Below are positions 1,179-18,157 of a stretch of DNA of 20,331 bases, piece after piece; the stretch's first letter is position 1; the number at the start of each line of letters is the position of its first letter. A program made the translations under genes and the position numbers. Origin of the DNA: Nitrosopumilus sp. (GTDB taxonomy: Archaea > Thermoproteota > Nitrososphaeria > Nitrososphaerales > Nitrosopumilaceae). The notes under the pieces were generated by a model, which did no database searches, was not told where the DNA came from, and saw only the letters and a program-made list of their open reading frames with translations. The stretch lies in the NCBI GenBank assembly GCA_020431995.1, contig JAGQHE010000097.1:1-20331 (forward strand), given 5' to 3'.

Positions 1179-1460
1179 TCATTCATTTTGGGTTTTTGCC
1201 AGAGAAATTTCCGCGGCATGAGTTTGCATTATGAAGAGTGTCCCTCAAACAATTACAACGTGCAAGACAATTCAGTTGCATGAACCCATTTCTCTAGGAT
1301 CAAGAATCTGGCATGGCCAAGCAAAGATTGAGACTTGATCATGCAATCATGTGCAGTAGCTACTCTTTTGGATGCCGGATCAACACCCGTATCCGTCAAT
1401 CTCTTTAGAATCAGATATTAGAGTCAAATATGTGCGGTTATTGCGTACCACGGTGATTTG

Positions 1461-2270
1461 ATGAGAAGGATCTTTTACATTATAATTCCCACAGCTGCAT
1501 TTGCCCTAGTTTTATCAAATGCCTTATTTGGTGAGATTCTTTTTGACTCTTCTTATGATCAGGACATCAACAAGTATTCCGTATACGTCCACCTGCAGCA
1601 AGACTGGAGGAACTCGGGAAACATTCTGTTTGATGTTACAAATGTTTGGTCAGACCAAAAATCCAAATCCAACAGGACATATTCCTCTGACGAGCCGTCA
1701 GACATCACATTACTTTCCAATTACAATTCAAACCAGCTGCAGTACCAGCACGGAAAATCATTTGTAGAGCTAAAGCACGATTTCAGTAACTGCGATTCAA
1801 GCTGGAAGCCAATATCATATCGCTACATAGTTGACATCATACGCAGCAAGATTGATTTGATTCAAGGGACAAAGATGAACGATGATCCTTACGTGTCAGT
1901 ATTTCCCAACAGCATGAATTTCAACTATGACGCTAAAAAACAAACAGAATATGCAAAGCAAGGATACGTCCAATTCATTCCAATTTGCACGGATAATGAA
2001 ACCACTTCCTATGAATACTCGGTTTCAGTGAATGACAAGAGCATTGGGTTTGATGTCTACTTTGTGCCTTCAGAAGAAGAGATGACAAATTACCTGAAAG
2101 GCGATTCCTTTGGATTCTATCCCCAAGACGGATGCCATGCCCAGAACTATCACAGCTTTAGCGGAATTTGCAAAAACGTCGGAAAGGGTTCAGGCTTGCT
2201 GATAATGCTACCAGATGATCTAGAGTTGGCTTTGACAAAAGTTCGGATCAGCCTTCATGAGAAGATTTAG
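1461..2270 (+). CDS. Secreted or membrane-anchored hypothetical protein
   Basis: The track ORF 1458..2270 begins with TTG, and an ATG follows at 1461. The N-terminus MRRIFYIIIPTAAFALVLSNALFG is signal-peptide-like. The rest is Cys-containing and hydrophilic with no recognisable catalytic motif. Confidence 0.55.
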   Translation: MRRIFYIIIPTAAFALVLSNALFGEILFDSSYDQDINKYSVYVHLQQDWRNSGNILFDVTNVWSDQKSKSNRTYSSDEPSDITLLSNYNSNQLQYQHGKSFVELKHDFSNCDSSWKPISYRYIVDIIRSKIDLIQGTKMNDDPYVSVFPNSMNFNYDAKKQTEYAKQGYVQFIPICTDNETTSYEYSVSVNDKSIGFDVYFVPSEEEMTNYLKGDSFGFYPQDGCHAQNYHSFSGICKNVGKGSGLLIMLPDDLELALTKVRISLHEKI

Positions 2271-2356
2271 AACAGTCTGTTTCTGGCGGAGCACTCAGAT
2301 TCCGGAAATCTTAGGTCATGAGGGTTTTCTAACCTCAGAAAGTTTCATGGTCGAAT

Positions 2357-2920
2357 CTATGATTCGCATCCAATCCCATCTTTGTCCCCATCAAATCTGT
2401 GCGGATCAGGTGGAATGACTTTGAATTTTTTGTATGGCACGTCTTTGCAATCCAAATCCGGAGGGTATGGTGGAATGCACACGTCAGGATAAGACGGATC
2501 GCAGTCATCCGTAGTTTGTTCATTCTGGACTGGTTCTGATTTTTGCGATATACCACATCCGTACTTCTGAGCCCATAAGTCATCAGAGAATTCGCTAGAC
2601 GAGCAATATTGCGGCAAAATGCTTGCATGCCCGTTATAGAGCAATTCTGAATTCAGATTCTTGCCGTTGCAATACACTTTTCCCAAGAGCCTGCCATATT
2701 TGTCGTATCGCTGCTTGTCGTCTTGATCAATAGTGATGACGGATCCAACTGGGCAGAGCCTTTTTGTAAATTCCGTAGAATCTAAGAATCCTGCCTCATT
2801 TTTTTCAGGAGTGTTTGTCAGAGACAGCCTTATCTTGTACCCTTCGACGTAAATGGTGTCACCATCAACGATTCTTTCAACCCTTGCAAGGATGCACAGA
2901 CCATTTCCCAAACAAGGCAT
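2357..2920 (-). CDS. Staphylococcal-nuclease (SNase/thermonuclease) fold nuclease with a C-terminal Excalibur Ca-binding domain
   Basis: SNase motifs are present: RVERIVDGDTIYV, IRLSLTNTPE, DKYGRLLGKVY..NLNSELLYNGHA. The C-terminus CDPSYPDVCIPPYPPDLDCKDVPYKKFKV..PDPHRFDGDKDGIGCES carries the Excalibur DxDxDGxxCE signature. The reading frame stays open upstream of the annotated Met through a second IPSW..NNADWW..SDEDFVKGIQYL repeat, so the true N-terminus is probably the 2953..3261 segment (see finding). Confidence 0.8.
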   Translation of the reverse strand: MPCLGNGLCILARVERIVDGDTIYVEGYKIRLSLTNTPEKNEAGFLDSTEFTKRLCPVGSVITIDQDDKQRYDKYGRLLGKVYCNGKNLNSELLYNGHASILPQYCSSSEFSDDLWAQKYGCGISQKSEPVQNEQTTDDCDPSYPDVCIPPYPPDLDCKDVPYKKFKVIPPDPHRFDGDKDGIGCES

Positions 2921-2952
2921 GCCATTTTGCGATACATGGATAATTCCATTAT

Positions 2953-3261
2953 TTACAAGGTATTGGATTCCCTTGACAAAGTCTTCATCAGATAAAAGCC
3001 CATGACTCCACCAGTCGGCATTGTTTCTAAGCCATGATGGGATGTGCTCTGAAGCATCATATGTTGTGCCCGTAGGAGCATATGTAGAGTTCCCTTTTGT
3101 AGGAGGTATTGCAGTCCCTTGACAAAGTCTGTGTCAGAGATCTGAGAGGTAGACCACCATTTTGCGTTGTTTTTTACCCAGTCAGGGATTTCATGGGTCA
3201 ATCCAAACGAATTCATCGGGAAAAACAAGAGAATCACAAACAAAACAACAGCCCATTTCAT
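2953..3261 (-). CDS. Signal peptide plus first 'IPDWVKNNAKWW..SDxDFVKGLQYL' repeat; probable detached N-terminus of the SNase gene
   Basis: The ORF starts MKWAVVLFVILLFFPMNSFG (signal peptide), followed by IPDWVKNNAKWWSTSQISDTDFVKGLQYLLQKG. After about nt 3090 this frame becomes implausible (TLHMLLRAQHMMLQSTSHHGLETM). The -1 frame over the same bases reads STYAPTGTTYDASEHIPSWLRNNADWWSHGLLSDEDFVKGIQYLVNNGIIHVSQNGMPCLGNG and runs straight into ORF 2357..2920. Confidence 0.6.
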   Translation of the reverse strand: MKWAVVLFVILLFFPMNSFGLTHEIPDWVKNNAKWWSTSQISDTDFVKGLQYLLQKGTLHMLLRAQHMMLQSTSHHGLETMPTGGVMGFYLMKTLSRESNTL

Positions 3262-3458
3262 TCATAGAATACAAGCATGTTTTTTGTTATAACATTTTTC
3301 CAAGCCAATTCAGGGTCAATTCTTGACAAATTCATTGTTTTGTGTCAGAATTGTTGTTTCCATGCAGATGTATTTACCGACATGCTACAAAGTCAGACAA
3401 AACCGCAGACCTCAATTTTCTAGATCAAGCTTATTTATCACGAGAACCATACAGATAC

Positions 3459-3872
3459 ATGGCCGAGACTAATGAGTCAGAAAATATTTTTACAGAATGC
3501 AAGAAGAATACCGAGAGATTTTTCAACGAGATTGACAAGTCCTCGCCGGTTTACCATCAGATAGCAACCGACATTCAGAGAAGCTATCTTGACGCATGGA
3601 AGAACGTGATCGAATCATCCATTGCCTTGCAACAAGAATATGCTGCCAAGACAGGCCTGAATGTAAGCATGCCGGAAGAAACCATGAAAGAAATCCACAG
3701 CATAATGGAGAAAGCATCCAAGGCATACCAAAATCAAAACAAGTTTGTCTTCGATTCCACTGAGACATCAAAAAAAATATTTGACATATTCAGTGAAAAC
3801 ACCAAGATATTCAGCTCGCTGAACAAAAACATGATTGATCTGATGACATCCAGCATGAAAAAACGCGCCTGA
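3459..3872 (+). CDS. Hypothetical all-helical protein (phasin-like impression only)
   Basis: The track ORF is 3342..3872. The first ATG is at 3459 (MAETNESENIF...), and the upstream part of the ORF (SELLFPCRCIYRH) looks non-coding. The sequence is helical and K/E/S-rich with no catalytic motif. The phasin resemblance is only compositional. Confidence 0.5.
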   Translation: MAETNESENIFTECKKNTERFFNEIDKSSPVYHQIATDIQRSYLDAWKNVIESSIALQQEYAAKTGLNVSMPEETMKEIHSIMEKASKAYQNQNKFVFDSTETSKKIFDIFSENTKIFSSLNKNMIDLMTSSMKKRA

Positions 3873-4070
3873 ACTTTTAGACTCCACGTGTCATTTTTTA
3901 GATAACACGAATGGCCTTTCCATGCCCCATACAGAAACATCGGGATTGAGTTCCATGAAATTTGTTAAAAAGACTTGCTATCGCTTGTGTCCTCTTCCTT
4001 TTATCATAAAAAACATACAGAATGACAAGCATCTGCCATGCCGTGTATAACCAGACCAGTTATTCAAGGG

Positions 4071-4103
4071 GCCTGACTGCACAGAGCAATCTTGCAGTCA
4101 GGC
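4071..4103. other. Perfect 11-bp GC-rich hairpin (GCCTGACTGCA, 11-nt loop, TGCAGTCAGGC); candidate structured RNA or protein-binding element
   Basis: Read directly from the sequence: 4071-4081 is the exact reverse complement of 4093-4103. It sits in a locally GC-rich patch (4060-4140, including CCCGGG) within an ORF-poor region. Confidence 0.4.
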
Positions 4104-4250
4104 TCATCTCGTCATCCTGAGAGGACGGGTTGCCCGGGAGATCTAGCAATGCATTTTCAAAGGATTCCAATCATGTAGTTTATGAAGAAACCCTAAAAGG
4201 TCAATTTTTCAAACCTCAGTCCTTTTTGATTTTTCTTTTAGAGCGTCATC

Positions 4251-4385
4251 ATGAGCAAACAGATCACAAACAGACACATTCAAAGTAAAAACGAGGAAGA
4301 GATATCAAGAAACATTCAGTATTTTGAGGTGTATAGAAAAATGGTCAGCCAGATGGCAAAGAATTCTGAAAAAGAGTACGCCTGA
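4251..4385 (+). CDS. Possible 44-aa small protein
   Basis: An ATG at 4251 opens MSKQITNRHIQSKNEEEISRNIQYFEVYRKMVSQMAKNSEKEYA, ending at TGA 4383-4385. The stop lies inside an 8-bp hairpin (CCTGAATG 4381-4388 / CATTCAGG 4401-4408). The ORF is below the track size cut-off and has no homology support. Confidence 0.2.
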   Translation: MSKQITNRHIQSKNEEEISRNIQYFEVYRKMVSQMAKNSEKEYA

Positions 4386-5167
4386 ATGTAGAACAATGGC
4401 CATTCAGGATCGTGCAGCTTGCGTACAAGCGCATTCCGCCGTTTCCATTTAGAACCATGCTGTTTTCCCATCAGGATTTGAGACATGTTATACAATGACA
4501 GGACTTCAAGCCTGTGAAGGGAACAGCCTTCTACAGGATTCTTGAAGGATTGCAGTTTGTGCACGATTCAGGTATTTATCCATACCATGTTCCAGATCCA
4601 TATCAGACGAGACAGGAATTAAGAAGACATTCTTGTGCACTGATTGCCACTGGTTTTAGGTTTCCCCTCTGCCATCATCATTTGCCTGGCAATACTGATC
4701 TTTACAGCGTTGGAAAATAAGACATTGTGGTTAAACGTGTAGTTGATTCTTGTGTCTCAGAAATGCTTGTTTGGTTTTCTGAAATCAGTTATTTCTGATT
4801 TTTACGTATCAAACATGACAAAAACTGTTAGACAGACTGTCAGACGTATAATTCTCTACTTTTCTACATCCAAAATCCGTATGCATGCACCACTCTTCGC
4901 AAAACCTGTTATGCTTGCGTAGAGTCTACTTTGCCTCACCTTTTTCCGTAGAAGAATTGTAAAACAGGCATAGAAAAACTCACACATCATGCACAATAGG
5001 TTAGAATACTATGAATATCGCAATTTGATCTTTTTCTTGAATTGAAGTATTTTGTTTGGTAACAAACATTTCTCATTAAATTTTGTAATATTTAATAATT
5101 TATGAAAGTATTATGACAGCAAGTCATTACAAAAGTGTTTTAAACCGCAAGCAACAAACTATCATGA

Positions 5168-6187
5168 TTGCCCCCATTTACAAAACCACATGACATTGAT
5201 TTTGTTTTGGATGTCAATACCGAAGTGAATGCGATCAAGAACCTGCAGAGACAGGGAAAATACAAACTGCCAAAAGGGCACGGAAAGAAACTTCTCTGTG
5301 GCACATGGAATATCGCAAACTTTGATGCACAAAAAAGGCCAGACACTGCCATTCCACTGATTGCACAAATTATTGAGCCCTTTGATCTTATTGCCATACA
5401 GGAAATCAATGCGGACTTGACAGGGCTGAGAAAACTGATGAACTTTCTTCCAGATCATTCTGCAATCTTTACTGACATTGCAGGAAACGAGGAGAGGATG
5501 TGCTACCTCTACAAGAAAAAAAGAATCAAACTGACATCTCATGTTGGAGAGCTAGACATTCCGCCATCAAAGAGAAACGGATACAAGGTAAAGTTCAAAG
5601 ACGAGAATGGAGATCCATGCATCCAGAGGTTCTCAGGATTTGACAGAAACCCCTATGTCATAAGCTGGAACTTTAAGGGAACGGAATTTACCGCATACAA
5701 CTGCCACATCTACTTTGGAAAGAAAAAAGAGGAAGACATTATGAAGTTCCGAAGAAGAATTGTAGAGGTTTACTCTCTAGTTGAATGGATTACAAAAAAA
5801 GAGAACAAAAATGACGGAAGCCTGTATTCTTCTAACATTGTACTTTTGGGAGACATGAATGTCCCAGAAATGAAAGATGATGACCAGGTATTCAAGCAAC
5901 TAAACCGCGGAGTGTTTACAGCACTTGACTATACTGACTATCTCACGCCATACTCCAATATCAAAAATGATGCATCATATGACCAGCTAGTCATTGCAGA
6001 GCCGTTCTCAAACAAGATGAAACTGTGCGGGCACGGCATACTTGCATGGGACAATGCAGTATTTGCCAAACTTGCAAGTGACTTGGGAGTAAAGACGTCA
6101 AAGAAAGCAGTGTCCAAGTTTCAGGCATTTGCAAAGTGGGCAATATCTGATCATAGACCTTTGTGGTGTCTGATGGAATTTCAATAG
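5168..6187 (+). CDS. Endonuclease/exonuclease/phosphatase (EEP, DNase I-like) family protein
   Basis: The ordered EEP catalytic motifs are present: GTWNIANF, DLIAIQEI, LLGDMNV and ISDHRPLW near the C-terminus. There is no signal peptide. The start is uncertain: TTG at 5168, with an out-of-frame ATG at 5164. Confidence 0.8.
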   Translation: MPPFTKPHDIDFVLDVNTEVNAIKNLQRQGKYKLPKGHGKKLLCGTWNIANFDAQKRPDTAIPLIAQIIEPFDLIAIQEINADLTGLRKLMNFLPDHSAIFTDIAGNEERMCYLYKKKRIKLTSHVGELDIPPSKRNGYKVKFKDENGDPCIQRFSGFDRNPYVISWNFKGTEFTAYNCHIYFGKKKEEDIMKFRRRIVEVYSLVEWITKKENKNDGSLYSSNIVLLGDMNVPEMKDDDQVFKQLNRGVFTALDYTDYLTPYSNIKNDASYDQLVIAEPFSNKMKLCGHGILAWDNAVFAKLASDLGVKTSKKAVSKFQAFAKWAISDHRPLWCLMEFQ

Positions 6188-7560: not shown

Positions 7561-8117
7561 AATCACGCCCGTCTACATCCGTTTTCATCTCCAAAATGGT
7601 GGGACCCACGTGTGACATCCTAACGTAAGTGGCGCCAACATGTACAGAGACAGGATCATGGAACGCCTAATAGCACGTAACTGGATGCAGTACCGGCAGA
7701 AGTCTCATTTTAAAAACAGATCACATGATCTACAGACACATCAAAGAAAATCAGAGATGTCCGAGCACAAGATCAAACACCATATCAATTGCAGGATTAT
7801 ATGAGATTGTTCAGAGGGTGGTTTTATTTCACAGTCACTGGTCTTTCCAGTCACATCTTTTCCAATGTTCTGGTTATCACCGTCGTTTTAATTCTAATTT
7901 TTATTTTTTCAGCCCTAAAGGATTTCAAAAACTAATTTTTTGGCTCAATCTCCACAGTAAATGTTTGAACAGCAATCTTTCCATCGCTCATAACAAATGT
8001 GTCAGTTCCTAGTGGAAAACAAAAATTTGATTTGTGTGTACATTTGGAAGCGCATCTGCTGAAATTCCAAAAATTGCCACTAAAAAAACTGTGATTAGTT
8101 TGGCAGTACTTTTTTGT

Positions 8118-9275: not shown

Positions 9276-10916
9276 TTGTCACAGCAACATATACCCGTGG
9301 TTCTTCTAAAGGAAGGATCCACTGAAACAAAAGGGCACGATGCCCAGAAAAACAATATCCAAGCCGCAAAGCTGGTGGCCGAACTGGTCAAGACAAGCCT
9401 AGGTCCGCGAGGAATGGACAAGATGATTGTTGATTCCCTAGGGGATGTAACCATAACAAATGATGGTGCTACAATCCTCAAGGAGATCGACGTCCAGCAT
9501 CCAGCCGCAAAGATGATGGTCGAGATCTCAAAGACTACAGATAACGAGGTAGGAGATGGTACCACATCTACTGTGATTCTGGCAGGTTCTCTGTTAGACA
9601 AAGCACAGGAGCTAACAGAGAAGAACGTTCATCCCACGATAGTGGTAAACGGTTTTAAAAAAGCAGCTGACAAGGGATTGGAAATTCTAAGAAGCGTAGC
9701 AGTCAAGGTTGACCCAGAAGACAAGGCATTTCTGAAAAAGATAGCAAAGACAACAATGGAGTCCAAGATCACGACATCCGATTCCAAGATGCTCTCCGAA
9801 GTAGTTGTGGAAGCCATTCTTGCAGTAAGTGAAAAGCAGAACGGCAAGACAAAGGTTGACATTGGCAACATCAAAGTCGAGAAGAAGGCAGGAGGCTCCA
9901 TGAAGTCAACAGAACTGGTTCAAGGAATTATCTTGGACAAGGAAATTGTTCACGGTGCAATGCCAAAACAGATCAAGACAGCAAAGATTGCACTTGTAAA
10001 CTGCCCATTGGAGATTGAGAAGACAGAGTTTGATGCCAAAATCAACATCAACTCTCCTGATCAAATGCAGCAGTTCATAGACGAGGAGAACAGGATGCTC
10101 AAAAAACTTGTGGATCAGGTTGCAGCGTCTGGTGCAAATGTTCTGCTGTGTCAGAAGGGAATAGACGACATGGCACAGCATTATCTTACGAAGGTTGGAA
10201 TCATGGCAGTAAGAAGAATAAAAGAAAGCGACATGATCAAGCTTTCAAAGGCAACAGGTGCCAGAATAATTACGAACATTGCTGAGCTTACAAAAGAGGA
10301 TCTTGGTGCTGCAGAGATTGCAGAAGAGAGAGAGGTTGAGACCGACAAGTGGGTGTTCATCGAGGGATGCAAGAACCCAAAAGCCGTAAGCATTCTTGTC
10401 AGGGGAGGTTCTCAGAGGATAGTAGACGAGGTGGACCGCTCCATCCATGATGCCTTGATGGCAGTAAAGGATGTTGTCACAAACCCGCATGCGCTGGTTG
10501 GCGCAGGCGCTCCCGAGGCATTCGTTGCAAACAAGCTAAGGGACTGGTCAAATTCGCTAGAGGGACGCTCTCAACTTGCAGCCCAGAAATTCGCAGATGC
10601 CATAGAGAACATGGCAGTGATCTTGGCTGAAAGCGCAGGGATGGATCCGCTTGATGCGCAAGTTCAGTTAAGACAAAAGGCAACTGACGGCAGGGCAGTA
10701 TATGGTATTGATGTCGAGAATGCAATGGTTGCAGACATGTCAAAAAGCGACATCTATGATCCGTTGGCCGTAAAAGAGCAGGTAATCAATGGCGCAACGG
10801 AGGTTGCATGCATGATTCTTAGAATCGATGATGTCATAGCAGGAAGCAAAAGCATGGCCCCATCAGGTCCTCCAGGAGAAAGGATGGGCGGAATGCCTCC
10901 AGGAATGGATATGTAA
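9276..10916 (+). CDS. ths: Thermosome subunit (group II chaperonin)
   Basis: 546 aa with a TTG start. Canonical motifs are present: [25 protein letters not shown], plus a [10 protein letters not shown]-terminal tail. Confidence 0.97.
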
Positions 10917-10960
10917 TTCCATTTTCTTTTTTATTTTTACCACAAGTCAAAATGCAGGGA

Positions 10961-11120
10961 CATTTCCTCACATGGCATGCTCTTGACAAACCATGAGTCT
11001 AAAGACAACATGAGGGATGGATCAGGGTATCTTTGAGGATGATTTTAGAATTCTTTACCGAAATGGAATGATCATCCTTTTAGAAATTTTATGTAGTGGC
11101 TCATTTGTTCTTTGAGTCAT
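10961..11120 (-). pseudogene. cas1: Heavily degraded second copy of the Cas1 N-terminal region
   Basis: The minus strand from the ATG at 11120 aligns in three shifting frames with the 15172 copy. MTQRTNE / HYIKFLKG* / KNSKIILKDTL / DSWFVKSMPCEEM corresponds to MTLKNQKNHYNVKLLQGYG...KNSKIVLKNGL...EEWFVKNMPYEKI. A 23-nt core matches at 22 of 23 positions (10972-10994 vs 15013-15035). The relic contains in-frame stops and indels. Confidence 0.55.
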
Positions 11121-11192
11121 TTTTGAAATTAAAAGATGGACAAAAGTATGGGAATGCTTTTTAGGTTATCATTCAGAATTTTTAGATGTATT

Positions 11193-11254
11193 CAAGAAGC
11201 AGGTTCACATGATTCTTGACTCTTGGGTCAAACAAGAGATCGTCCTGCTTCTTG
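11193..11254. repeat. 62-nt nested inverted repeat (long imperfect hairpin)
   Basis: The outer arms CAAGAAGCAGG (11193-11203) and CCTGCTTCTTG (11244-11254) are perfect complements. The inner palindrome TTGAC-TCTTGG-GTCAA sits at the centre. Confidence 0.6.
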
Positions 11255-11402
11255 ATTGTATATTAAATCATTTATGATTAAAAAGGGATACGTAGAATTT
11301 GTTAGTCTTTCAGTCATCAATTCATAATGATTTTAAAATGACCCTGAACTTTCTCCAACAAATCATAACTTACGTAATTGTCTGGCATGGCAAACTCAGG
11401 AA

Positions 11403-11429
11403 CAAAAACGGTGATGCCATTTTTACTCT
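11403..11429 (-). repeat. Distal copy of the aEF-2 3'-terminal sequence (att/TSD-like direct repeat)
   Basis: The minus strand reads AGAGTAAAAATGG-CATCACCGTTTTTG. Its first 13 nt are identical to the aEF-2 end (15971-15959), and the next ~15 nt resemble the sequence that follows it there (TATGCCCCCGTTTTG). Confidence 0.45.
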
Positions 11430-11539
11430 GCCGATTAAAATGCAGAGTCGTCTTCACAGGCACAAAAAACGCAACATAACTAGTGCAATGATGTGGGTTT
11501 GTTTGTTGAAGATTTTTTAAAAAGGGATAACGCATCAAA

Positions 11540-12034
11540 ATGTTATTGGCAAAATTAGAAAATTATGAACTCTCAGATTCACAAATAAAAAACGGATTAA
11601 AGAAAGCTCTCCTAGGGTCTATCGAACTGTCTGGATATGCAAAGTATATTCTTGAACGAAACGGAAACACTACATTATCTTTAGGGTTGTATTCCTTTGC
11701 AATTGGAGAATATGGCAAGTATGAGATTCTCAGGGAATTTCTTTCAGAATCTGTAAAAAGACACCACATACCAAAAGTAATTTTTGATGTAAAAAATTTC
11801 AAGATTAATTTTAAAAAAGCGTTGGATACGTTGCCTAGGAGCATAACTGAGAATCTTTCGAATGATCTGTCATTGGACTTGCAATCCAAAATGAGTTATT
11901 TCAATCTAACATGGGATCAAGAAAAAGAAAAATGGAATGCTCCTCCAAAAATTGATTCATCTCTACTGTCAGAGTCATTGATTTCATTTGAAAAACATGT
12001 TTCTGTGAAACTAGATTCTGAATATGACAGTTAA
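11540..12034 (+). CDS. Hypothetical protein, AbiV-like (abortive-infection family) impression
   Basis: 164-aa ORF preceded by an A/T-rich TATA-like box about 23 nt upstream, which suggests a leaderless transcript. The N-terminal helix pair IKNGLKKALLGSIELSGYAKYILE...LSLGLYSFAIGEYGKYEILREF resembles the AbiV hallmark (A..L..A..L....A.EE.GK...L). This is recalled from memory of the family and not verified. Confidence 0.45.
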   Translation: MLLAKLENYELSDSQIKNGLKKALLGSIELSGYAKYILERNGNTTLSLGLYSFAIGEYGKYEILREFLSESVKRHHIPKVIFDVKNFKINFKKALDTLPRSITENLSNDLSLDLQSKMSYFNLTWDQEKEKWNAPPKIDSSLLSESLISFEKHVSVKLDSEYDS

Positions 12035-12209
12035 AGAACAGCAGGATCATTACAACGTGAAAAGACTACGGTCATTCTGAACATGTAAAAAATTCACAAA
12101 AACTAAAATCAGACCACAATCCTTTCTCTAATCAACTACAAAGCATTGGTTGTCAATGTTATTTGTATTCGAAAAGTATTGGATATGCTGGGTTTATCTC
12201 ATTTATTTA

Positions 12210-12503
12210 TCAAAAGTGGATCCACGTTACAAACAGAAAAGAAGATACGTATCCAAATTCCACCCAAATGAACAGTCGACATCCAACAGCACTCCTAGTA
12301 CCACATCTAGATCCTATTGTAAATTTCCACCCATAAGAATCAGGAGCATTGACATTATCAGGTCTAAGACTTGTAGGCCAAGTAAAACAATATCTCCCTC
12401 CTCCACACTTACTAGCAAGTTTGAAAAAATCTGGAGATAAAATACCGACTGTACTTGTACCGTGTTTCTTTATCATCTTTGTCAATGAAATAGAAATTTT
12501 CAT
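12210..12503 (-). CDS. Hypothetical protein (uncertain gene)
   Basis: The 97-aa ORF has protein-like composition (GGGRYCFTWPTSLRPDNVNAPDSYGWKFTIGS). The overlapping + strand ORF 12150..12440 is S/T/R-rich and looks like a shadow ORF. I recognise no family. Confidence 0.3.
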   Translation of the reverse strand: MKISISLTKMIKKHGTSTVGILSPDFFKLASKCGGGRYCFTWPTSLRPDNVNAPDSYGWKFTIGSRCGTRSAVGCRLFIWVEFGYVSSFLFVTWIHF

Positions 12504-12994
12504 TTTTGAGGATTTGTAGAGATCATTAGTTAGAACAAACGGGCGATTCTTAGTGATGAATCCTCAAATGAAGATATTTGAGATGATTACTTTGGCAAAC
12601 TTTTCTCAATCCTTTCAACAAGTTCTTTACTTCTTTAGACACAAATCTCACTAGCGATGTGAATTAAATTTAATGTGTCTAACACATACTCTGCAAATTT
12701 TTGCAAAGATTGTATGTTGTTCTTTGTAAGTTGTTTGTTATCTGACTAGAATTATTTAAATATTTGAAAAAAAATAAATAGCAATTTAAATTCTCAAAGA
12801 TTTGAAAGTTCTTTTTATACTAATCAATGGTAGTCAAAAACTTTCCATTAACAAAACGTCAGGTGTTTTACATGTTTTTCTAATGTATTTATTCTCTTTT
12901 TTGCTGAACTAGATCATTTTCTAATTTTGTGATTCTATCGTGTTGTTCTTTATTTTTATTGCATCTACAGAAATATCAAGTTGATTTATAGCTA

Positions 12995-14422
12995 CTAAGT
13001 CCCTGGAATTTGATCAACATATCGTGTTTCTGCGGATAACACAATATCATAAGCATCGCCATTTTCAAAACTATCAATCGACAACGATATCATGCCATTA
13101 CTAACTGGCAACGTTTGGATTTCAGTAATTACATTGCTAGCAGATGCAGGATTTGGAATACGCATGATATCTGCTTGTATTGTGTTTGCATCATAAGGAT
13201 AATTTTGAATGTTTATCACAACGTTATTTTGATTGCGGTCATAATTACCTACAAGTAGATGAATTTTTTCTGTTTGGTCATTTTTACTTGCTAGTGAAAT
13301 TATGTGGGACCCTAAGCTTTCTGTAAAAATTCTATTCTTATCTAATTCAGCATATGCCTTATATACAAAATAGATGTTCTCGGGGGTTTTATTGTCTTGG
13401 TCAAGCATTCCATTTAATCCATTCCAGCAATTACTCCATACAGACGATCCAGATCCCATGTCCCAGCATGCACGATTTGCAACATCTACATTTGCTTTTT
13501 CAAGTGAGTATAGCCATCGCACAGCCCATCCTGGGACAGACTGATTGTCATTTGAACCATATTCATTGATATGTATCTCTTGAATCTTCAAATTCTGTTT
13601 TTTTTCAAAAGTACTATCTATTATGAAACGCATTTTTTTCACATGTTCGAGCATCGCATCAGGATCATCAAATTCATGCCAAGACAATGCAGTTAGTTCA
13701 AGATTGTTTTCTTCAATATATCTTATAAAATTAGTTAGATGTTGTTCGTCAAATTGATTTGTGCTTGGTGCAACTATTTTAGCATTAGGCACGTGTTTTT
13801 TTATTATATCATGTGTTATTTTAACAATCTCAAATTTTTGGGATTCAGTAAAGCCGTTGAAAATACCATCCGGCTCATTATATACATCATAATAATCTAT
13901 GTGGATTTTATTCTGTACAGTTTTGATCATAAGATCTTCCATAAAATATTCCCAAATAGTTTTAAATTGTTCAAATGATTGAATACAAGTTTTATTAGAT
14001 GAATCACATTCAGATTCTAAATCAAGAGAGTACTGATTATTACTCACCCCATAAACTGAGAAAAACAAATCAGACAGTACAAAAGTGATTTGTGTGTCGT
14101 GCTTTGATCTAACATTGTCATTTACAAAATTATAGATTGGAATAGTACTCATTCTCCATGATTTTGGTTCTAACTGTGAAACAGAATCCAATATTTCATT
14201 TTGGTTGATGATGTCCGGCAAACCATGAATAAACCCTGATTTTAATTTGACTTTGTCAATATTTTCTCCAGCATCAACAATGACAGACGGCATCATACCT
14301 GTGTTGATTAACTTGTTTATGCCGACAGCATCTTGAATTTTATCAGACGAATTTACAGACGTTATGCCAAGAATTAACAATAAGATTACAGATGCGCTTG
14401 TTGCAATGAAAATTTTTTTCAA
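12995..14422 (-). CDS. Secreted glycoside hydrolase, clan GH-A TIM-barrel type (GH39/GH30/GH5-like) with a C-terminal beta-sandwich
   Basis: A signal peptide is present (MKKIFIATSASVILLLILGITSVNS). YYDVYNEPDG matches the clan GH-A 'NEP' acid/base motif. IQEIHINEYGSN is a candidate nucleophile strand, and LSWHEFDD lies between them. The gene is very AT-rich. Confidence 0.6.
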   Translation of the reverse strand: MKKIFIATSASVILLLILGITSVNSSDKIQDAVGINKLINTGMMPSVIVDAGENIDKVKLKSGFIHGLPDIINQNEILDSVSQLEPKSWRMSTIPIYNFVNDNVRSKHDTQITFVLSDLFFSVYGVSNNQYSLDLESECDSSNKTCIQSFEQFKTIWEYFMEDLMIKTVQNKIHIDYYDVYNEPDGIFNGFTESQKFEIVKITHDIIKKHVPNAKIVAPSTNQFDEQHLTNFIRYIEENNLELTALSWHEFDDPDAMLEHVKKMRFIIDSTFEKKQNLKIQEIHINEYGSNDNQSVPGWAVRWLYSLEKANVDVANRACWDMGSGSSVWSNCWNGLNGMLDQDNKTPENIYFVYKAYAELDKNRIFTESLGSHIISLASKNDQTEKIHLLVGNYDRNQNNVVINIQNYPYDANTIQADIMRIPNPASASNVITEIQTLPVSNGMISLSIDSFENGDAYDIVLSAETRYVDQIPGT

Positions 14423-14567
14423 CTATGCGGTTTCAAGCAAACATTCTATCTAAACTTGACGTTAAGCGTAGGCAAATAATCAAGTCACAAGAGAATAAAA
14501 TACATAATCAAGCCATACACGAATTCAAATCTTCTAATCATCACTGCAAATTACTGGTATGCTGGAA

Positions 14568-14812
14568 TTATGATTCGCATCCAATACCGTCTTTATCCCC
14601 ATCAAACCTATGTTGGTCTGGAAGAAGCACTCTGAATTTTTTGCATGGCACATCTTTGCAATCTAAGTCAGGAGGATAAGGTGGGATGCATACATCAGGA
14701 TAAGAAGGATCGCAGTTTTCTGTACTTTGTGTAGTTTTTGGAGCAGACGGGGTAGTCTGAGAAGTTTTAGTTGTGATTGTTGCTTCGCAGATATAATCTG
14801 CTTTTGTAGGTA
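14568..14812 (-). pseudogene. 3' stump of an Excalibur-domain gene, paralogous to the C-terminus of the SNase gene at 2357-2560
   Basis: The +1 frame relative to the Cas1 ORF reads ADYICEATITTKTSQTTPSAPKTTQSTENCDPSYPDVCIPPYPPDLDCKDVPCKKFRVLLPDQHRFDGDKDGIGCES*, with its stop at 14570-14568. It is nearly identical in protein sequence and clearly similar in DNA to 2357-2490. An in-frame stop lies just upstream and there is no start codon. Confidence 0.8.
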
Positions 14813-15172
14813 TTCACATTTCTCAGGATTTCTAAACGTGTCATATTGCGCTATGCGGTATTTTGTGGCAGTTAGTGAATCCATCACGCCATTTAGAAAT
14901 GATATTGGTTTCCCAAAAGTGTCAGTCAAGACAAGATTACGGTTGTTTTGATTTAGTAGAGATAATGCTTCAATGGAAACATATCCTTTTCCAGATAACA
15001 CTATCTTCTCATATGGCATGTTCTTGACAAACCATTCTTCTTTTTCTTGTTCTCCTGTTACATCATGTAAGCCGTTCTTTAGAACGATTTTGGAATTTTT
15101 AAGAGAAATTGAAACTCCGTATCCTTGGAGAAGTTTTACGTTGTAATGATTTTTCTGATTTTTTAAAGTCAA
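14663..15172 (-). pseudogene. cas1: Truncated Cas1 (casposase-like): N-terminal domain and first helix only, about 127 aa
   Basis: The Cas1 N-terminal architecture is present. Beta strands: YNVKLLQGYGVSISLKNSKIVLKNG. The central segment is EKIVLSGKGYVSIEALSLLNQNNRNLVLTDTFGKPISFLNG. The helical domain then opens with TATKYRIAQYDTFRNPEKCEYLQKQIISAK, as in ..R.AQ....d.e.rl.iAk.ii.aKi.NQ. After that the ORF degenerates into a read-through of the Excalibur stump in the wrong frame. The catalytic helical domain is absent. The start is TTG. Confidence 0.7.
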
Positions 15173-15183
15173 TCTGTCTAGAA

Positions 15184-15621
15184 TTAAGAATTTTCAGATG
15201 TTGAAAATGTGTAAGACATAGGTGGAGTTATAGATTGAACATAAGGAGAATCTAAAATTTCTTCCAATATGGAATATGTGTTAATTACTGCAAAATAGAT
15301 ATGCGCCCACCGTGCTTGATTGAAGGGTTTGTCTTTTTCAAACTTGAATGTGTATCCATCTAGAGTAATCTCTTTTGAGGATTTTGTATGAATTCCATTA
15401 GAATGGAGGCAATTTCTAACATATGCAAGAAGATTCAAGATATCTCTTTTTTCATCAGAATTTTGGATTTGTAAAACTGACAGTAGTTTTGTTACTATGT
15501 CGTAATATTGTCTAGGTACATTTTCATCCATACTGGACAAAAGTATTTTGAATAAAGTTTCTATTTGAAACTGAAAATTAGTAATAAATGAAATACGACG
15601 AATGTCATTTTCAACCATCAT
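15184..15621 (-). CDS. C-terminal part of a hypothetical protein with a possible HEPN-like RNxxH motif; probably one gene with 15677..15880
   Basis: The frame stays open upstream of the Met (IKKIINEEQARKLLSNDLGDFHGS-MMVEND...) up to the A8 tract. The sequence is all-helical and contains LLAYVRNCLHSNGIH. The R-to-H spacing is one residue shorter than the canonical HEPN Rx4-6H motif, so the HEPN assignment is weak. Confidence 0.5.
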   Translation of the reverse strand: MMVENDIRRISFITNFQFQIETLFKILLSSMDENVPRQYYDIVTKLLSVLQIQNSDEKRDILNLLAYVRNCLHSNGIHTKSSKEITLDGYTFKFEKDKPFNQARWAHIYFAVINTYSILEEILDSPYVQSITPPMSYTFSTSENS

Positions 15622-15676
15622 AGATCCGTGAAAATCCCCTAGATCGTTACTTAGTAATTTTCGTGCTTGTTCTTCA

Positions 15677-15880
15677 TTAATGATTTTTTTTATCTAATGA
15701 TTCTAGTAAACTCATGTGCATTACTGATGACATACAAAGATGGCAACAACCGTTTAGAATGATATATCTTCCATCATTATCTGGATATCCATATTTTGTT
15801 AATAAGTTAAGAAACTTATTTCTCAATTCTAAAAATTGTTTTTTGTCCTCACTTAATGTAGGAGTGTCATTGAATGGCAA
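15677..15880 (-). CDS. N-terminal part of the same hypothetical protein, ending in the A8 tract
   Basis: The ORF has a TTG start and ends ...LLESLDKKNH*. The stop is created by the reading frame through the homopolymer at 15684-15691 (T8 on the + strand). With seven A instead of eight it reads ...SLDKKIINEEQARKLL... into ORF 15184..15621. Confidence 0.45.
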   Translation of the reverse strand: MPFNDTPTLSEDKKQFLELRNKFLNLLTKYGYPDNDGRYIILNGCCHLCMSSVMHMSLLESLDKKNH

Positions 15881-15942
15881 TACCGTTTTACTTTGAATTA
15901 AATAATTTCTTAAGCTTTACGACAAGCGTCATGTTTTTGTGC

Positions 15943-15971
15943 CCAAAACGGGGGCATACCATTTTTACTCT
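15943..15971 (-). repeat. aEF-2 3' terminus plus adjacent sequence (proximal att/TSD-like repeat)
   Basis: The minus strand reads AGAGTAAAAATGG-TATGCCCCCGTTTTGGGC and includes the last codon and a half and the TAA stop of aEF-2. It is repeated at 11429-11403. A degenerate third copy (CAAAGTAAAACGGTATTGCC) lies at 15897-15878. Confidence 0.5.
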
Positions 15972-18157
15972 TTGTCGATGAACTCGTTGACGCCTGGAGG
16001 GTCTGGCGCAAGCCCTTTTCTTTTCCTAATGTCCGCTACTGCGGATGCCAGCATTGACTTTGGGACCTCTGTCCATTCCTTAAAGGAGGTGTTCCATGTC
16101 GCACGTCCTGCGGTCTGGCCCCTCATCTCCTCAGACAATGTGAACGTCTCAGAGGCAGGAATCTCGCCTACAATGATGCTTGATGCGCCCTTTTGCTGCA
16201 TGTCTAATACCTTGCCACGCTTGCCAGAAAGAACAGTTGCCACGTTTCCGACCAGGTCAGTTGGGACACGTACCTCGATTGCTAGCGTAGGCTCCAGGAC
16301 TGCTGTACCTGCAGTAAGCAACGCGCCCATACATGCCCTGCGTGAGGCGGGTCCAAGCTGTGACAGTCCCCTGTGTGCAGTGTCCTCATGAGGAACAAAG
16401 TGAGTAAATATGAACTTGCAGTTTCTCATCTGCTCCTTGCACAGAGGCCCTTCTTTCATTACTTCTTCAAACCCGGAATTGATAGAGTCAGTTGACTCTT
16501 GTACAAACTGGACACCCTTTGTCCCATTGATCAGTACGTTTCCACGCGAGTCAAACTTCATGACCCTCTTGATAGTATCAGTATCCCATCCAGCCTCTTT
16601 TAGCAAGTCAGCTACAACTTTTTTGTCCTTCATGTCGCTGATTTCGCCGGTCCTAAGCATGTGGGCAATCTTTGGCTCCAGTGGCTCCACCTTCATGAAA
16701 ATCTTGTTGTGCCTGTTAGGGGATTTTGCCATGACTGGTTCGCATGTACCCTTGACAGTCTCCCTGTAGTTAATCAAAGGTTCGGAAGTCACAATCTCAC
16801 ATTTTGCATCCTGGATTCTGTGCGTTGCAACATCAAGGTGCAACACGCCCATCCCGGCAACGATTGTCTCTCCACTTTCCTCATCTATCTTTACAATGAG
16901 GTTTGGATCCTCAATGGTAAGCTGCTTTAGGATTTCTACGAGCTTTGGCAGGTCTTTAGGATGCTTTGGCTCGATGGCGATTTGAACGACAGGTTCTGAG
17001 ACATACTTTACGCCTTCAAACATAGGGATGCCTTTGACTGACGACAATGTGTTTCCGGCTCTTGCCTCTGTCAGCCCTAGCAGTGCAGGGATGTTTCCAG
17101 CCCCCAGCTCTCCTACCTGCTCTCTCTGGTTGCCCATAAAGAAATTGACTGACTGTATTCTTCCTTCCCTTTTGGAATCAATTATGTTTATTGTCTGGCC
17201 GTCTTTGACGACTCCGGAGAACAGCCTGCCAATTGCGACAGGCCCTGCTGCAGGATCCAACACCATGTTCACAATCATCATGATTGTCGGGCCGTCATCA
17301 CTGCATGCAAGAAGTGCCTTTCCAATGTCAGACTCCAAGTCACCCTTCCAGATTTGAGGTATTCTATACTTTACCGCCTCAGGTGGAGAGGGATGATGCT
17401 TTACGACCATCCCAAGTACTGCGTCAGCCAAAGGTGCCTTTTCAACCAAGACATCGACTTTTTCGTTGACATAGGCGTCAATCACATCCTTGAATGTGAT
17501 TCCTTTCTCCTTCATCAAATCCACGTTTATTGCCCATTTGTCTTTTGCAGAACCAAACGTCACGCTTGCGTTCTGAATTGACACTTTCCATTTTTCTTTG
17601 TACTCTGGCTCTGCATAGGTGTCAATTAGTTGGTTAAAGTTGGAAACTACTTCTGCTAGCTGTTGCTGCATTTTTTCAGGAGTCAGTCTGAGCTCCTTGA
17701 TCAGCCTGTCAACCTTGTTGATAAACAAGACAGGCTTTACTCTCTCCTCAAGTGCCATCCTGGTCACGGTCTCAGTTTGAGTCATAATGCCTTCTACGGC
17801 ATCACATACAACTACGGCGCCGTCAATTGCCCTAAGGCTACGGATTACCCTTCCGCTAAAGTCCACGTGTCCGGGCGTGTCAATCATGTTAATGACGTAT
17901 TCCTGACCCTTTTGAGAAAAGAGCAGTGTTACGTTTGCCTGATAAATCGTAATCCCTCTTTGCTGTTCCTCTTTGTCAAAGTCCATTGCAAGAGCCTTTC
18001 CTGCAGCTGAGGGGGCAATAATTCCAGAGTTTGCCAAAAGGCTGTCACTCATTGTGGTTTTACCGTGGTCAACGTGCGCGATTACACCAAAGTTACGAAT
18101 GTTTGCCTTGTTCTTGATAATTTTCATAACCTCTGCTGTTGACTTGAATTTTGCCAT
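15965..18157 (-). CDS. fusA: Translation elongation factor 2 (aEF-2)
   Basis: 730 aa. GTPase motifs AHVDHGKTT, DTPGHVDF and NKVD are present, along with the diphthamide-region motif HEDTAHRG. Confidence 0.97.
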   Translation of the reverse strand: MAKFKSTAEVMKIIKNKANIRNFGVIAHVDHGKTTMSDSLLANSGIIAPSAAGKALAMDFDKEEQQRGITIYQANVTLLFSQKGQEYVINMIDTPGHVDFSGRVIRSLRAIDGAVVVCDAVEGIMTQTETVTRMALEERVKPVLFINKVDRLIKELRLTPEKMQQQLAEVVSNFNQLIDTYAEPEYKEKWKVSIQNASVTFGSAKDKWAINVDLMKEKGITFKDVIDAYVNEKVDVLVEKAPLADAVLGMVVKHHPSPPEAVKYRIPQIWKGDLESDIGKALLACSDDGPTIMMIVNMVLDPAAGPVAIGRLFSGVVKDGQTINIIDSKREGRIQSVNFFMGNQREQVGELGAGNIPALLGLTEARAGNTLSSVKGIPMFEGVKYVSEPVVQIAIEPKHPKDLPKLVEILKQLTIEDPNLIVKIDEESGETIVAGMGVLHLDVATHRIQDAKCEIVTSEPLINYRETVKGTCEPVMAKSPNRHNKIFMKVEPLEPKIAHMLRTGEISDMKDKKVVADLLKEAGWDTDTIKRVMKFDSRGNVLINGTKGVQFVQESTDSINSGFEEVMKEGPLCKEQMRNCKFIFTHFVPHEDTAHRGLSQLGPASRRACMGALLTAGTAVLEPTLAIEVRVPTDLVGNVATVLSGKRGKVLDMQQKGASSIIVGEIPASETFTLSEEMRGQTAGRATWNTSFKEWTEVPKSMLASAVADIRKRKGLAPDPPGVNEFIDKE

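Follow-up and report, generated by a model that had tools for sequence, protein, structure and literature searches.

How the end of the aEF-2 gene came to be present twice within a few kilobases is the question raised by a 20,331-nt stretch of Nitrosopumilus sp. DNA (contig JAGQHE010000097.1, positions 1 to 20,331; hereafter the window). A 13-mer that crosses the aEF-2 stop codon recurs exactly on the same strand, and a preliminary description of the window had attributed the pair to tandem insertions of related elements into one target, leaving a target duplication and a common terminal sequence. Here, we show that the repeat matches the insertion junction of casposons, transposons whose casposase is a Cas1 protein, and we consider it very probable that three or more of them inserted in tandem at the aEF-2 3' end, the 13-mer marking what is left of this array after decay.

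The aEF-2 junction and its second copy

Exact searching recovered two copies of AGAGTAAAAATGG in the window, both on the minus strand (15971-15959 and 11429-11417), the first of which crosses the stop codon TAA at 15967-15965. The likeness of the copies runs over 38 aligned columns (TTCATCGACAAAGAGTAAAAATGGTATGCCCCCGTTTT versus TTAATCGGC--AGAGTAAAAATGGCAT--CACCGTTTT), and a Cas1 relic lies downstream of each (15172-14774, E = 2e-57; 11120-10955, E = 0.009, with stops), as the preliminary description had proposed. Exact copies amounted to 0.00 in 100 dinucleotide shuffles, and none was found on either strand of 1.27 Mb from our comparison set, which consists of 80 species-level Nitrosopumilaceae loci around aEF-2. 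For the 35-nt core, copy 2 scored 33, against a best score of 22.1 ± 2.1 (maximum 28) in shuffled sequence. The two exact copies are therefore real and not a product of chance, which removes the caveat under which they were first reported.

What the copies stand for becomes apparent by comparison with published elements. The 3' end of aEF-2 is where the Nitrosopumilus family-1 casposons insert, with a direct repeat TTTATTGATAAAG(A)GTAAAA and terminal inverted repeats (TIRs) that begin AGTAAAAATAGAATCCCCC... or AGTAAAAATAGAATCCCCCATTCGG... (PMC4046053, text and supplement). The target site duplication (TSD) has been defined in vitro as the 13-bp ATTGATAAAGAGT after a TTT leader, with A1, A11 and T13 being critical (Wang et al. 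2021, PMC8464041). The window junction reads GAGTTC, then ATCGACAAAGAGT, then AAAAATGGTATGCCCCCG; this first TSD copy (TSD1) is homologous to the in vitro-defined target, retains all three key bases, and is directly followed by AAAAATGGTATGCCCCC. Target, TSD class and the AAAAA and C-run start of the TIR agree with those published for these family-1 casposons, and the alignment identifies the 13-mer as a TSD/TIR junction (5 nt of the 13-bp TSD plus 8 nt of the TIR, AAAAATGG...) and not as a pure TSD. The aEF-2 open reading frame (ORF) is intact despite the insertion, its stop codon being composed of T13 of the TSD and the leading AA of the TIR. At the second copy, the junction reads ...GACTCTGCATTTTA, ATCGGCAGAGT, AAAAATGGCATCACCG. 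The decayed TSD here (TSD2) can be read as ATCGAC(AG)3T minus one AG unit, an allele present in locus L031, and it occupies the same position as the TSD between neighbouring elements in L031 and in the contig introduced next.

The same site is occupied in related genomes, whose loci match the last 250 residues of aEF-2 (the search query) at 92-100% amino acid identity in the 80-locus set. A casposon terminus stands directly after the aEF-2 stop in 20 of the 80 species genomes (GAGTAA followed by AAATAGAATCCCCC or AAAGGGAAAGCCCCCC); several more have truncated terminus starts, and the remainder look empty. In L031, an 8.8-kb casposon is complete and flanked on each side by the TSD TTTATCGACAGAGAGTAAAAA; the TIR of a second element comes right after the second TSD. 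An intact array of the window's layout, in a close relative, is found in contig M (Ga0224506_10000056, from a metagenome; L089 and L085 merged, 9200-31800), in which the aEF-2 region is 84% identical to the window in nucleotides and the last 250 amino acids are identical. There, aEF-2 is followed by ATCGACAAAGAGT, element M1, ATCGACAAAGAGT, element M2, ATCGACAAAGAGT and a further TIR, the 13-bp TSD being identical at all three junctions. Both M1 and M2 are complete family-1 casposons (Cas1 of 341 and 336 aa; pPolB of 592 and 601 aa), which are oppositely oriented and each have a perfect pair of TIRs. Between tandem elements, both L031 and M read ...GGGGGGATTCTATTTTT / ATCGAC..GAGT / AAAAAGG..CCCCCC, with slashes at the borders.

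Casposon termini could be recognized at three places in the window (15966-15909, 11436-11530 and 11424-11345), in line with the TIRs expected at the ends of family-1 elements. Searched without the TSD against 1.63 Mb, the terminus at copy 1 (15966-15880) had 23 matches (best E = 7.7e-6) and that at copy 2 (11424-11336) had 11 (best E = 0.009); among these are L123, with the terminus right after its aEF-2, and the L031 casposon, with its right end. The copy 2 terminus also aligns with the Cas1-proximal end of the latter casposon, CCTGAGTTTG and TTATGATTTGTTGGAGAA being common to both. The third terminus, inverted and directly upstream of copy 2, was absent from the preliminary description; the L102 casposon, at both its ends, is among its 16 matches (best E = 1.4e-5), and its sole match in the 1.27 Mb set was the left end of the L021 casposon. 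The best-scoring matches of all three are casposon ends in other Nitrosopumilaceae genomes and metagenomes, and termini directly after aEF-2 in L041, L079, L022, L123 and L102 are among the best.

These matches also bear on the possibility that the 13-mer pair is a chance match in A/T-rich DNA, or the attL/attR of a tyrosine-recombinase element. The motif is indeed A/T-rich, at least two matches to it arose in 24 of 100 shuffles when two mismatches were permitted, and integrative elements with att repeats in gene 3' ends are common in Thaumarchaeota (PMC6563490). However, 0.00 exact copies are expected, the extended score lies above every shuffle, and casposon-terminus matches follow both copies. 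A tyrosine-recombinase element would have a XerC/D-family integrase and att repeats without TIRs; no tyrosine or serine recombinase domain occurs in any scanned ORF, and Cas1 relics and TIRs are present instead. We regard this explanation as excluded.

A degenerate third copy of the repeat had been proposed at 15897-15878. It scored 17, under the mean chance best of about 22, and the sequence after it has no casposon terminus match in 1.63 Mb, so that it is not supported as a further junction. Because L155 carries a second junction at the corresponding place, the inner TIR edge, we reject it with some reserve. A separate stretch at 11904-11945 (plus strand), ATCAAGAAAAAGAAAAATGGAATGCTCCTCC, resembles a TSD and TIR start with a score of 26, at about the top 5% of chance. 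It lies 100 nt upstream of the Cas1 relic on the plus strand described below, is of low complexity, and is also identical at 27 of 32 positions to an internal part of the first Cas1 relic (15063-15032).

Number and history of the insertions

The 4.5 kb between the two 13-mer copies (stretch A) contains two facing N-terminal relics of Cas1, one of which (relic C, plus strand, 12024-12129) had been overlooked. Reading away from aEF-2, the order is TSD1; element A1 (TIR, two orphan ORFs, Cas1 residues 1-133); a mosaic interior with a nuclease fragment and a GH39-like gene; element A2, inverted (Cas1 residues 1-39, an orphan ORF, TIR); TSD2; and element B (TIR, segment S, Cas1 residues 1-58), which ends at a thermosome gene. 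The TIRs at the two ends of stretch A are of unlike subtype and form no significant inverted repeat with each other, so they were rejected as the TIR pair of one element; intact elements carry matched pairs (both M elements; L093 and L102), and the stretch is therefore assigned to two elements. With the truncated element B after copy 2, this gives at least three insertions. The tandem insertion proposed in the preliminary description stands, supported by the published TSD and TIRs, by the 20 occupied genomes and by the arrays in L031 and M, whereas its picture of two Cas1 relics, one for each good copy, gives way to three relics and at least three insertions.

Could two insertions suffice? The stretch from TSD1 to TSD2 would then be one casposon that contains an internal inverted duplication of its Cas1 end and foreign genes. 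Just two TSD copies are detectable, and the interior is clearly mosaic, its Cas1 being fused to a piece of a nuclease (SNase) gene and its GH39-like gene recurring in an unrelated context. On the other hand, the two ends differ in TIR subtype and are unpaired, while intact elements have near-perfect pairs; the facing relics are only 66% identical and are preceded by different orphan ORFs; and L093 and L102 already suggest intact elements matching the left end of A only and the right end only. Furthermore, contig M has two separate complete elements in exactly this orientation pattern (Cas1 proximal, Cas1 distal, TSD, further TIR). We thus regard a history of two insertions as unlikely.

A segmental duplication, without transposition, could also yield two similar junctions if it took in the aEF-2 3' end and the end of one casposon already resident there. 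Both copies have the unusual TIR start AAAAATGG, which stands directly after the aEF-2 stop in none of the other 80 genome loci, and the aEF-2 end copies in L155 hold 9-13 nt of leader, beyond a 13-bp TSD. Yet the similarity in the window ends at the border of leader and TSD, and the bases that precede TSD2 belong to an inverted casposon terminus instead of aEF-2 coding sequence. Past about 35 nt, the two sides diverge: their TIRs are of different subtypes, their internal layout is 790 nt with two ORFs at copy 1 and 290 nt with segment S at copy 2, and their Cas1 relics are 71% identical with many indels. The three relics are mutually 66-71% identical, likewise with many indels, which argues that no recent duplication took place; this explanation is highly improbable.

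Several observations weigh against a tandem array of three casposons. TSD2 is imperfect (11 nt, one substitution, a 2-nt gap), and no third TSD-like site that would close element B was found across the window. Copy 2 is weak against the short TSD and TIR profile (E of about 6) because its C-run is decayed, and its terminus was settled by the longer comparisons given above. No polB relic, which family-1 elements would lead one to expect, was found inside 10917-15966; the sole PolB relic in the window (4197-4642, plus strand) lies past the thermosome and other host genes. The lack of polB in the array means that these are non-autonomous remnants and not complete family members. No empty-site allele of the same strain was found, the only other contig with the exact aEF-2 (L081) being short and identical in sequence, and N. 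salarius BD31 (L002) was discarded as an empty-site comparison, with only AAAAAGGG after the stop and no downstream synteny. Finally, the number and order of insertions are inferred and not observed.

The steps of integration, which we take from the literature, are as follows: 1) the casposase recognises a short leader (TTT or TTC) and the 13-bp target, here ATCGACAAAGAGT; 2) it joins the element's two 3' ends to both borders of the target; and 3) gap repair leaves the 13 bp duplicated on either side of the element. The cut falls inside the stop codon, between T and AA, and the element's terminal AAAAA restores TAA and keeps aEF-2 intact. Re-use of the site builds a head-to-tail array with one TSD copy between neighbouring elements. 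Since targeting is leader-proximal, and judging from how far each element has decayed, B was probably the first to insert and A1 the last, and the TIR-TSD-TIR junction between A1 and A2 would have been lost by deletion. The array appears to be a fossil, immobile in cis, because no intact cas1 or polB is left.

Element interiors and neighbouring DNA

Coordinates of the features are collected in Table 1.

Table 1 Features of the aEF-2 locus, from the gene outward (positions in the window).
Feature	Position	Strand	Basis or remark
aEF-2, 730 aa; its 3' end is the integration target	15965-18157	-	Pfam GTP_EFTU, EFG_C and related domains
TSD copy 1, ATCGACAAAGAGT	15967-15979	-	Final T is stop codon base 1; leader GAGTTC upstream
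13-mer copy 1	15959-15971	-	Last 5 nt of TSD and first 8 nt of TIR
TIR of element A1 (left end), AAAAATGGTATGCCCCCGTTTTGGGCACAAAAACATGACGCTTGTCGTAAAGCTTAAG	15909-15966	-	nhmmer TSD+TIR profile, E = 8e-12; alignment with 7 casposon ends
Proposed third copy	15878-15897	-	Unsupported as TSD/TIR junction; in subterminal region differing between elements
Orphan ORFs between TIR and cas1: 67 aa (15677-15880), 145 aa (15184-15621)	15184-15880	-	ORF list
Cas1 (casposase) relic 1, residues 1-133 only	14774-15172	-	Pfam Cas_Cas1, E = 3e-10, profile positions 4-119 of 283
SNase/Excalibur nuclease gene, 3' fragment, joined to broken end of Cas1 relic 1	14567-14743	-	Similarity
GH39-like protein gene, intact, 475 aa, N-terminal hydrophobic segment	12995-14422	-	34 homologs, several with PF01229
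Cas1 relic C, residues 1-39, frameshifted, faces relic 1	12024-12129	+	tblastn with L031 Cas1, two high-scoring segment pairs (MTVKEQQDHYNVK / KDYGHSEHVKNSQKLKSDHNPFS), E = 2e-5; inverted repeat I2
Orphan ORF, 164 aa, between A2 terminus and Cas1 relic C	11540-12034	+	ORF list; sub-threshold HEPN_AbiV match only, E = 0.05
TIR of element A2 (right end, read inward), TAAAATGCAGAGTCGTCTTCACAGGCACAAAAAACGCAACATAACTAGTGCAATGATG...	11436-11530	+	Matches to casposon ends; alignment
TSD copy 2, ATCGGCAGAGT, decayed, 11 nt	11425-11435	-	Alignments; A5 to G and 2-nt deletion; A1, A11, T13 retained
13-mer copy 2	11417-11429	-	Exact repeat of copy 1
TIR of element B (left, Cas1-proximal end)	11345-11424	-	Aligns with Cas1-proximal L031 casposon end
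Segment S, between TIR and cas1	11131-11334		Conserved stretch of this casposon lineage
Cas1 relic 2, residues ~1-58, stops and frameshifts, cut off beside thermosome gene	10955-11120	-	tblastn E = 0.009 and HSISVKNSKIILK, 11/13 residues
Thermosome gene, abrupt end of element B	9276-10916	+	Pfam Cpn60_TCP1, E = 3e-177

Relic 1 is 65% identical to the complete Cas1 of the L031 casposon (334 aa, E = 2e-57). Relic 2 has nucleotide matches to many cas1 5' ends and shares 33 nt at 88% with relic 1. None of the three orphan ORFs has a Pfam or NCBIfam family (for the 164-aa ORF, none at threshold) or a homolog in the wider set of 155 related loci. At about 14743, the broken end of relic 1 is joined to the SNase fragment, which is 82% identical to window positions 2358-2519 and 82.5% identical to the 3' end of the SNase gene of casposon M2, where that gene end lies directly against cas1. 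The GH39-like gene is rare, with 34 homologs in a protein-database search, the few named ones being bacterial. It is apparently a passenger or an insert, and since its closest homolog (80% in nucleotides) lies in an unrelated context with no flanks in common, a recent horizontal acquisition into the array is suggested.

In element B, window positions 11365-10968 are colinear (71.6% over 416 nt) with the intact TSD-TIR-S-Cas1 end of L122 and L120, which places segment S in that casposon lineage; the segment is 79% identical to M 26181-26376. Similar stretches of about 200 nt occur in L077 (11476-11610), L079 (16880-17026) and the same part of M, and also as an isolated relic. In a comparison of five sequences, segment S showed a single 10-bp stem (AAGAAGCAGG/CCTGCTTCTT), supported by one compensatory pair; as a known RNA it was rejected, with that one stem and no Rfam match in the whole window, and it may be an RNA, a promoter or a decayed ORF.

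Beyond element B, a thermosome gene was found within 10 kb of aEF-2 in none of the related loci. Further casposon-related DNA is present past the thermosome and Hsp20 genes, at 1404-4642. It includes the pPolB relic at 4197-4642 and an SNase/Excalibur gene (2358-3172) whose counterpart in contig M is a casposon passenger beside cas1. Two ORFs, at 1404-2272 and 3416-3875, have counterparts that come after the third TSD of contig M, and in genomes with an empty site, homologs of the latter ORF are the immediate downstream neighbours of aEF-2. A rearrangement may have split the array. In addition, 112 nt at 7917-8028 match, inverted and at 82% identity, a segment (3991-4102) that precedes aEF-2 in contig M. 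A Cas1-like match at 5216-5383 was dismissed, its ORF encoding an endonuclease/exonuclease/phosphatase-family protein.

Many metagenome contigs (L097, L115, L118/L119, L120 and L096) have several Cas1 copies or relics each and repeated TSD and TIR junctions, including facing pairs of Cas1 N-terminal relics as in the window, and judged from these sequences, decayed multi-unit arrays seem to be common at aEF-2. Inverted TSD and TIR junctions are found a few kb downstream of aEF-2 in L017 (11877-11916, minus strand) and L022 (8025-8060), which is consistent with inverted casposon termini recombining and flipping array segments; contig M has a degenerate inverted TSD and TIR (ATCGACAGAAT AAAAATGGAAAGCCC) about 7 kb beyond its array. 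In L155, the aEF-2 3' end occurs twice (181-330), with 100 nt from one copy to the other and away from aEF-2 itself, each with 9-13 nt of leader (AACGAGTTCATCGAC...), more than a 13-bp TSD explains. Its first copy is followed by a solo TIR, AAAAATGGTATCCCCCC, which is 82% identical over 78 nt to the A1 TIR, has the same AAAAATGGTAT start and is among the closest relatives of that TIR. In L001, L004 and L054, the contig breaks off at the junction between aEF-2 and casposon or no more than about 20 nt from it, consistent with repeated termini confusing assemblers.

Comparison with known systems

The locus consists of remnants of family-1 casposons. As in NitSJ-C1, NitAR1-C1 and NitAR2-C1 (Krupovic et al. 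2014, PMC4046053), and as for the N. koreensis casposase (PMC8464041), the target is the aEF-2 3' end, entered without disruption of the gene, and the flanking 13-bp target duplication is represented by TSD1 and TSD2. TSD position and sequence class are common (ATTGATAAAGAGT there, ATCGACAAAGAGT here, with A1, A11 and T13 kept), as is a TIR start of AAAAA and a C-run; the inner TIR motif is AATTACGTGAATTATGATTTT versus CAATTACGTAAGTTATGATTTG, and the window TIR begins TGG where the published one begins TAGAA. Cas1 lacks a helix-turn-helix domain and belongs to the same thaumarchaeal clade (65% to the L031 casposon Cas1), although it survives only as truncated fossils of 39-133 N-terminal residues. 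All elements of the window are dead, polB and intact mobility genes being absent from the array, and its passengers (the GH39-like gene, the SNase fragment and the orphan ORFs) have not been described in published elements.

Re-use of one specific site, with some inactive copies and termini left after decay, is also known from the tandem arrays, inactivated copies and solo TIRs of Methanosarcina family-2 casposons (Krupovic et al. 2016, PMC4779613) and from Tn7 at attTn7. The Methanosarcina casposons belong to another family, with tRNA-Leu or intergenic targets and another polymerase type. Tn7 at glmS likewise preserves its target gene, yet its transposition proteins are unrelated.

A likeness to CRISPR arrays, drawn as an analogy only, lies in the Cas1-family integrase, in a leader beside a short repeat that is duplicated with each insertion, and in the probably leader-proximal addition. 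The differences are considerable: the window has two repeats 4.5 kb apart and no other copies, no CRISPR-type family among its listed repeats, whole decayed transposons in place of spacers, no cas effector genes, and no sign that the array is transcribed or processed. Solo TIRs of about 90 nt between target copies, as seen in L155, raise the idea that the aEF-2 site acts as a polarised, leader-adjacent array that gathers casposon termini and short remnants between target copies and captures passenger genes. This requires that the mini-units be made by the casposase itself and not by decay, and we hold it to be very unlikely; if true, the site would represent a natural intermediate in the proposed evolution of CRISPR arrays from sites of casposon insertion, or a platform for gene capture that resembles an integron.

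Targeting of aEF-2, the TSD and TIRs, and tandem insertion are already published, and our understanding of casposons is unchanged by this locus, a new and more decayed instance. It offers an explanation for the hypervariable, assembly-breaking region downstream of aEF-2 in Nitrosopumilus, and the survey provides a quick count of occupied sites (20 of 80 species-level genomes). It also indicates that short Cas1 ORFs downstream of aEF-2 are transposon fossils and not CRISPR components. The closest precedent is the tandem pair NitNF5-C1/NitNF5-C2 in ef-2 of Ca. Nitrosopumilus adriaticus NF5 (Krupovic et al. 2019, PMC6563490), in which, as in the window, successive family-1 insertions entered one aEF-2 target with a shared TSD between them. 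Whereas the NF5 elements are complete, the window very probably holds at least three, all degraded, with one junction lost and the last element truncated against a host gene, and so gives the single tandem family-1 array known from earlier descriptions a decayed counterpart with three elements.

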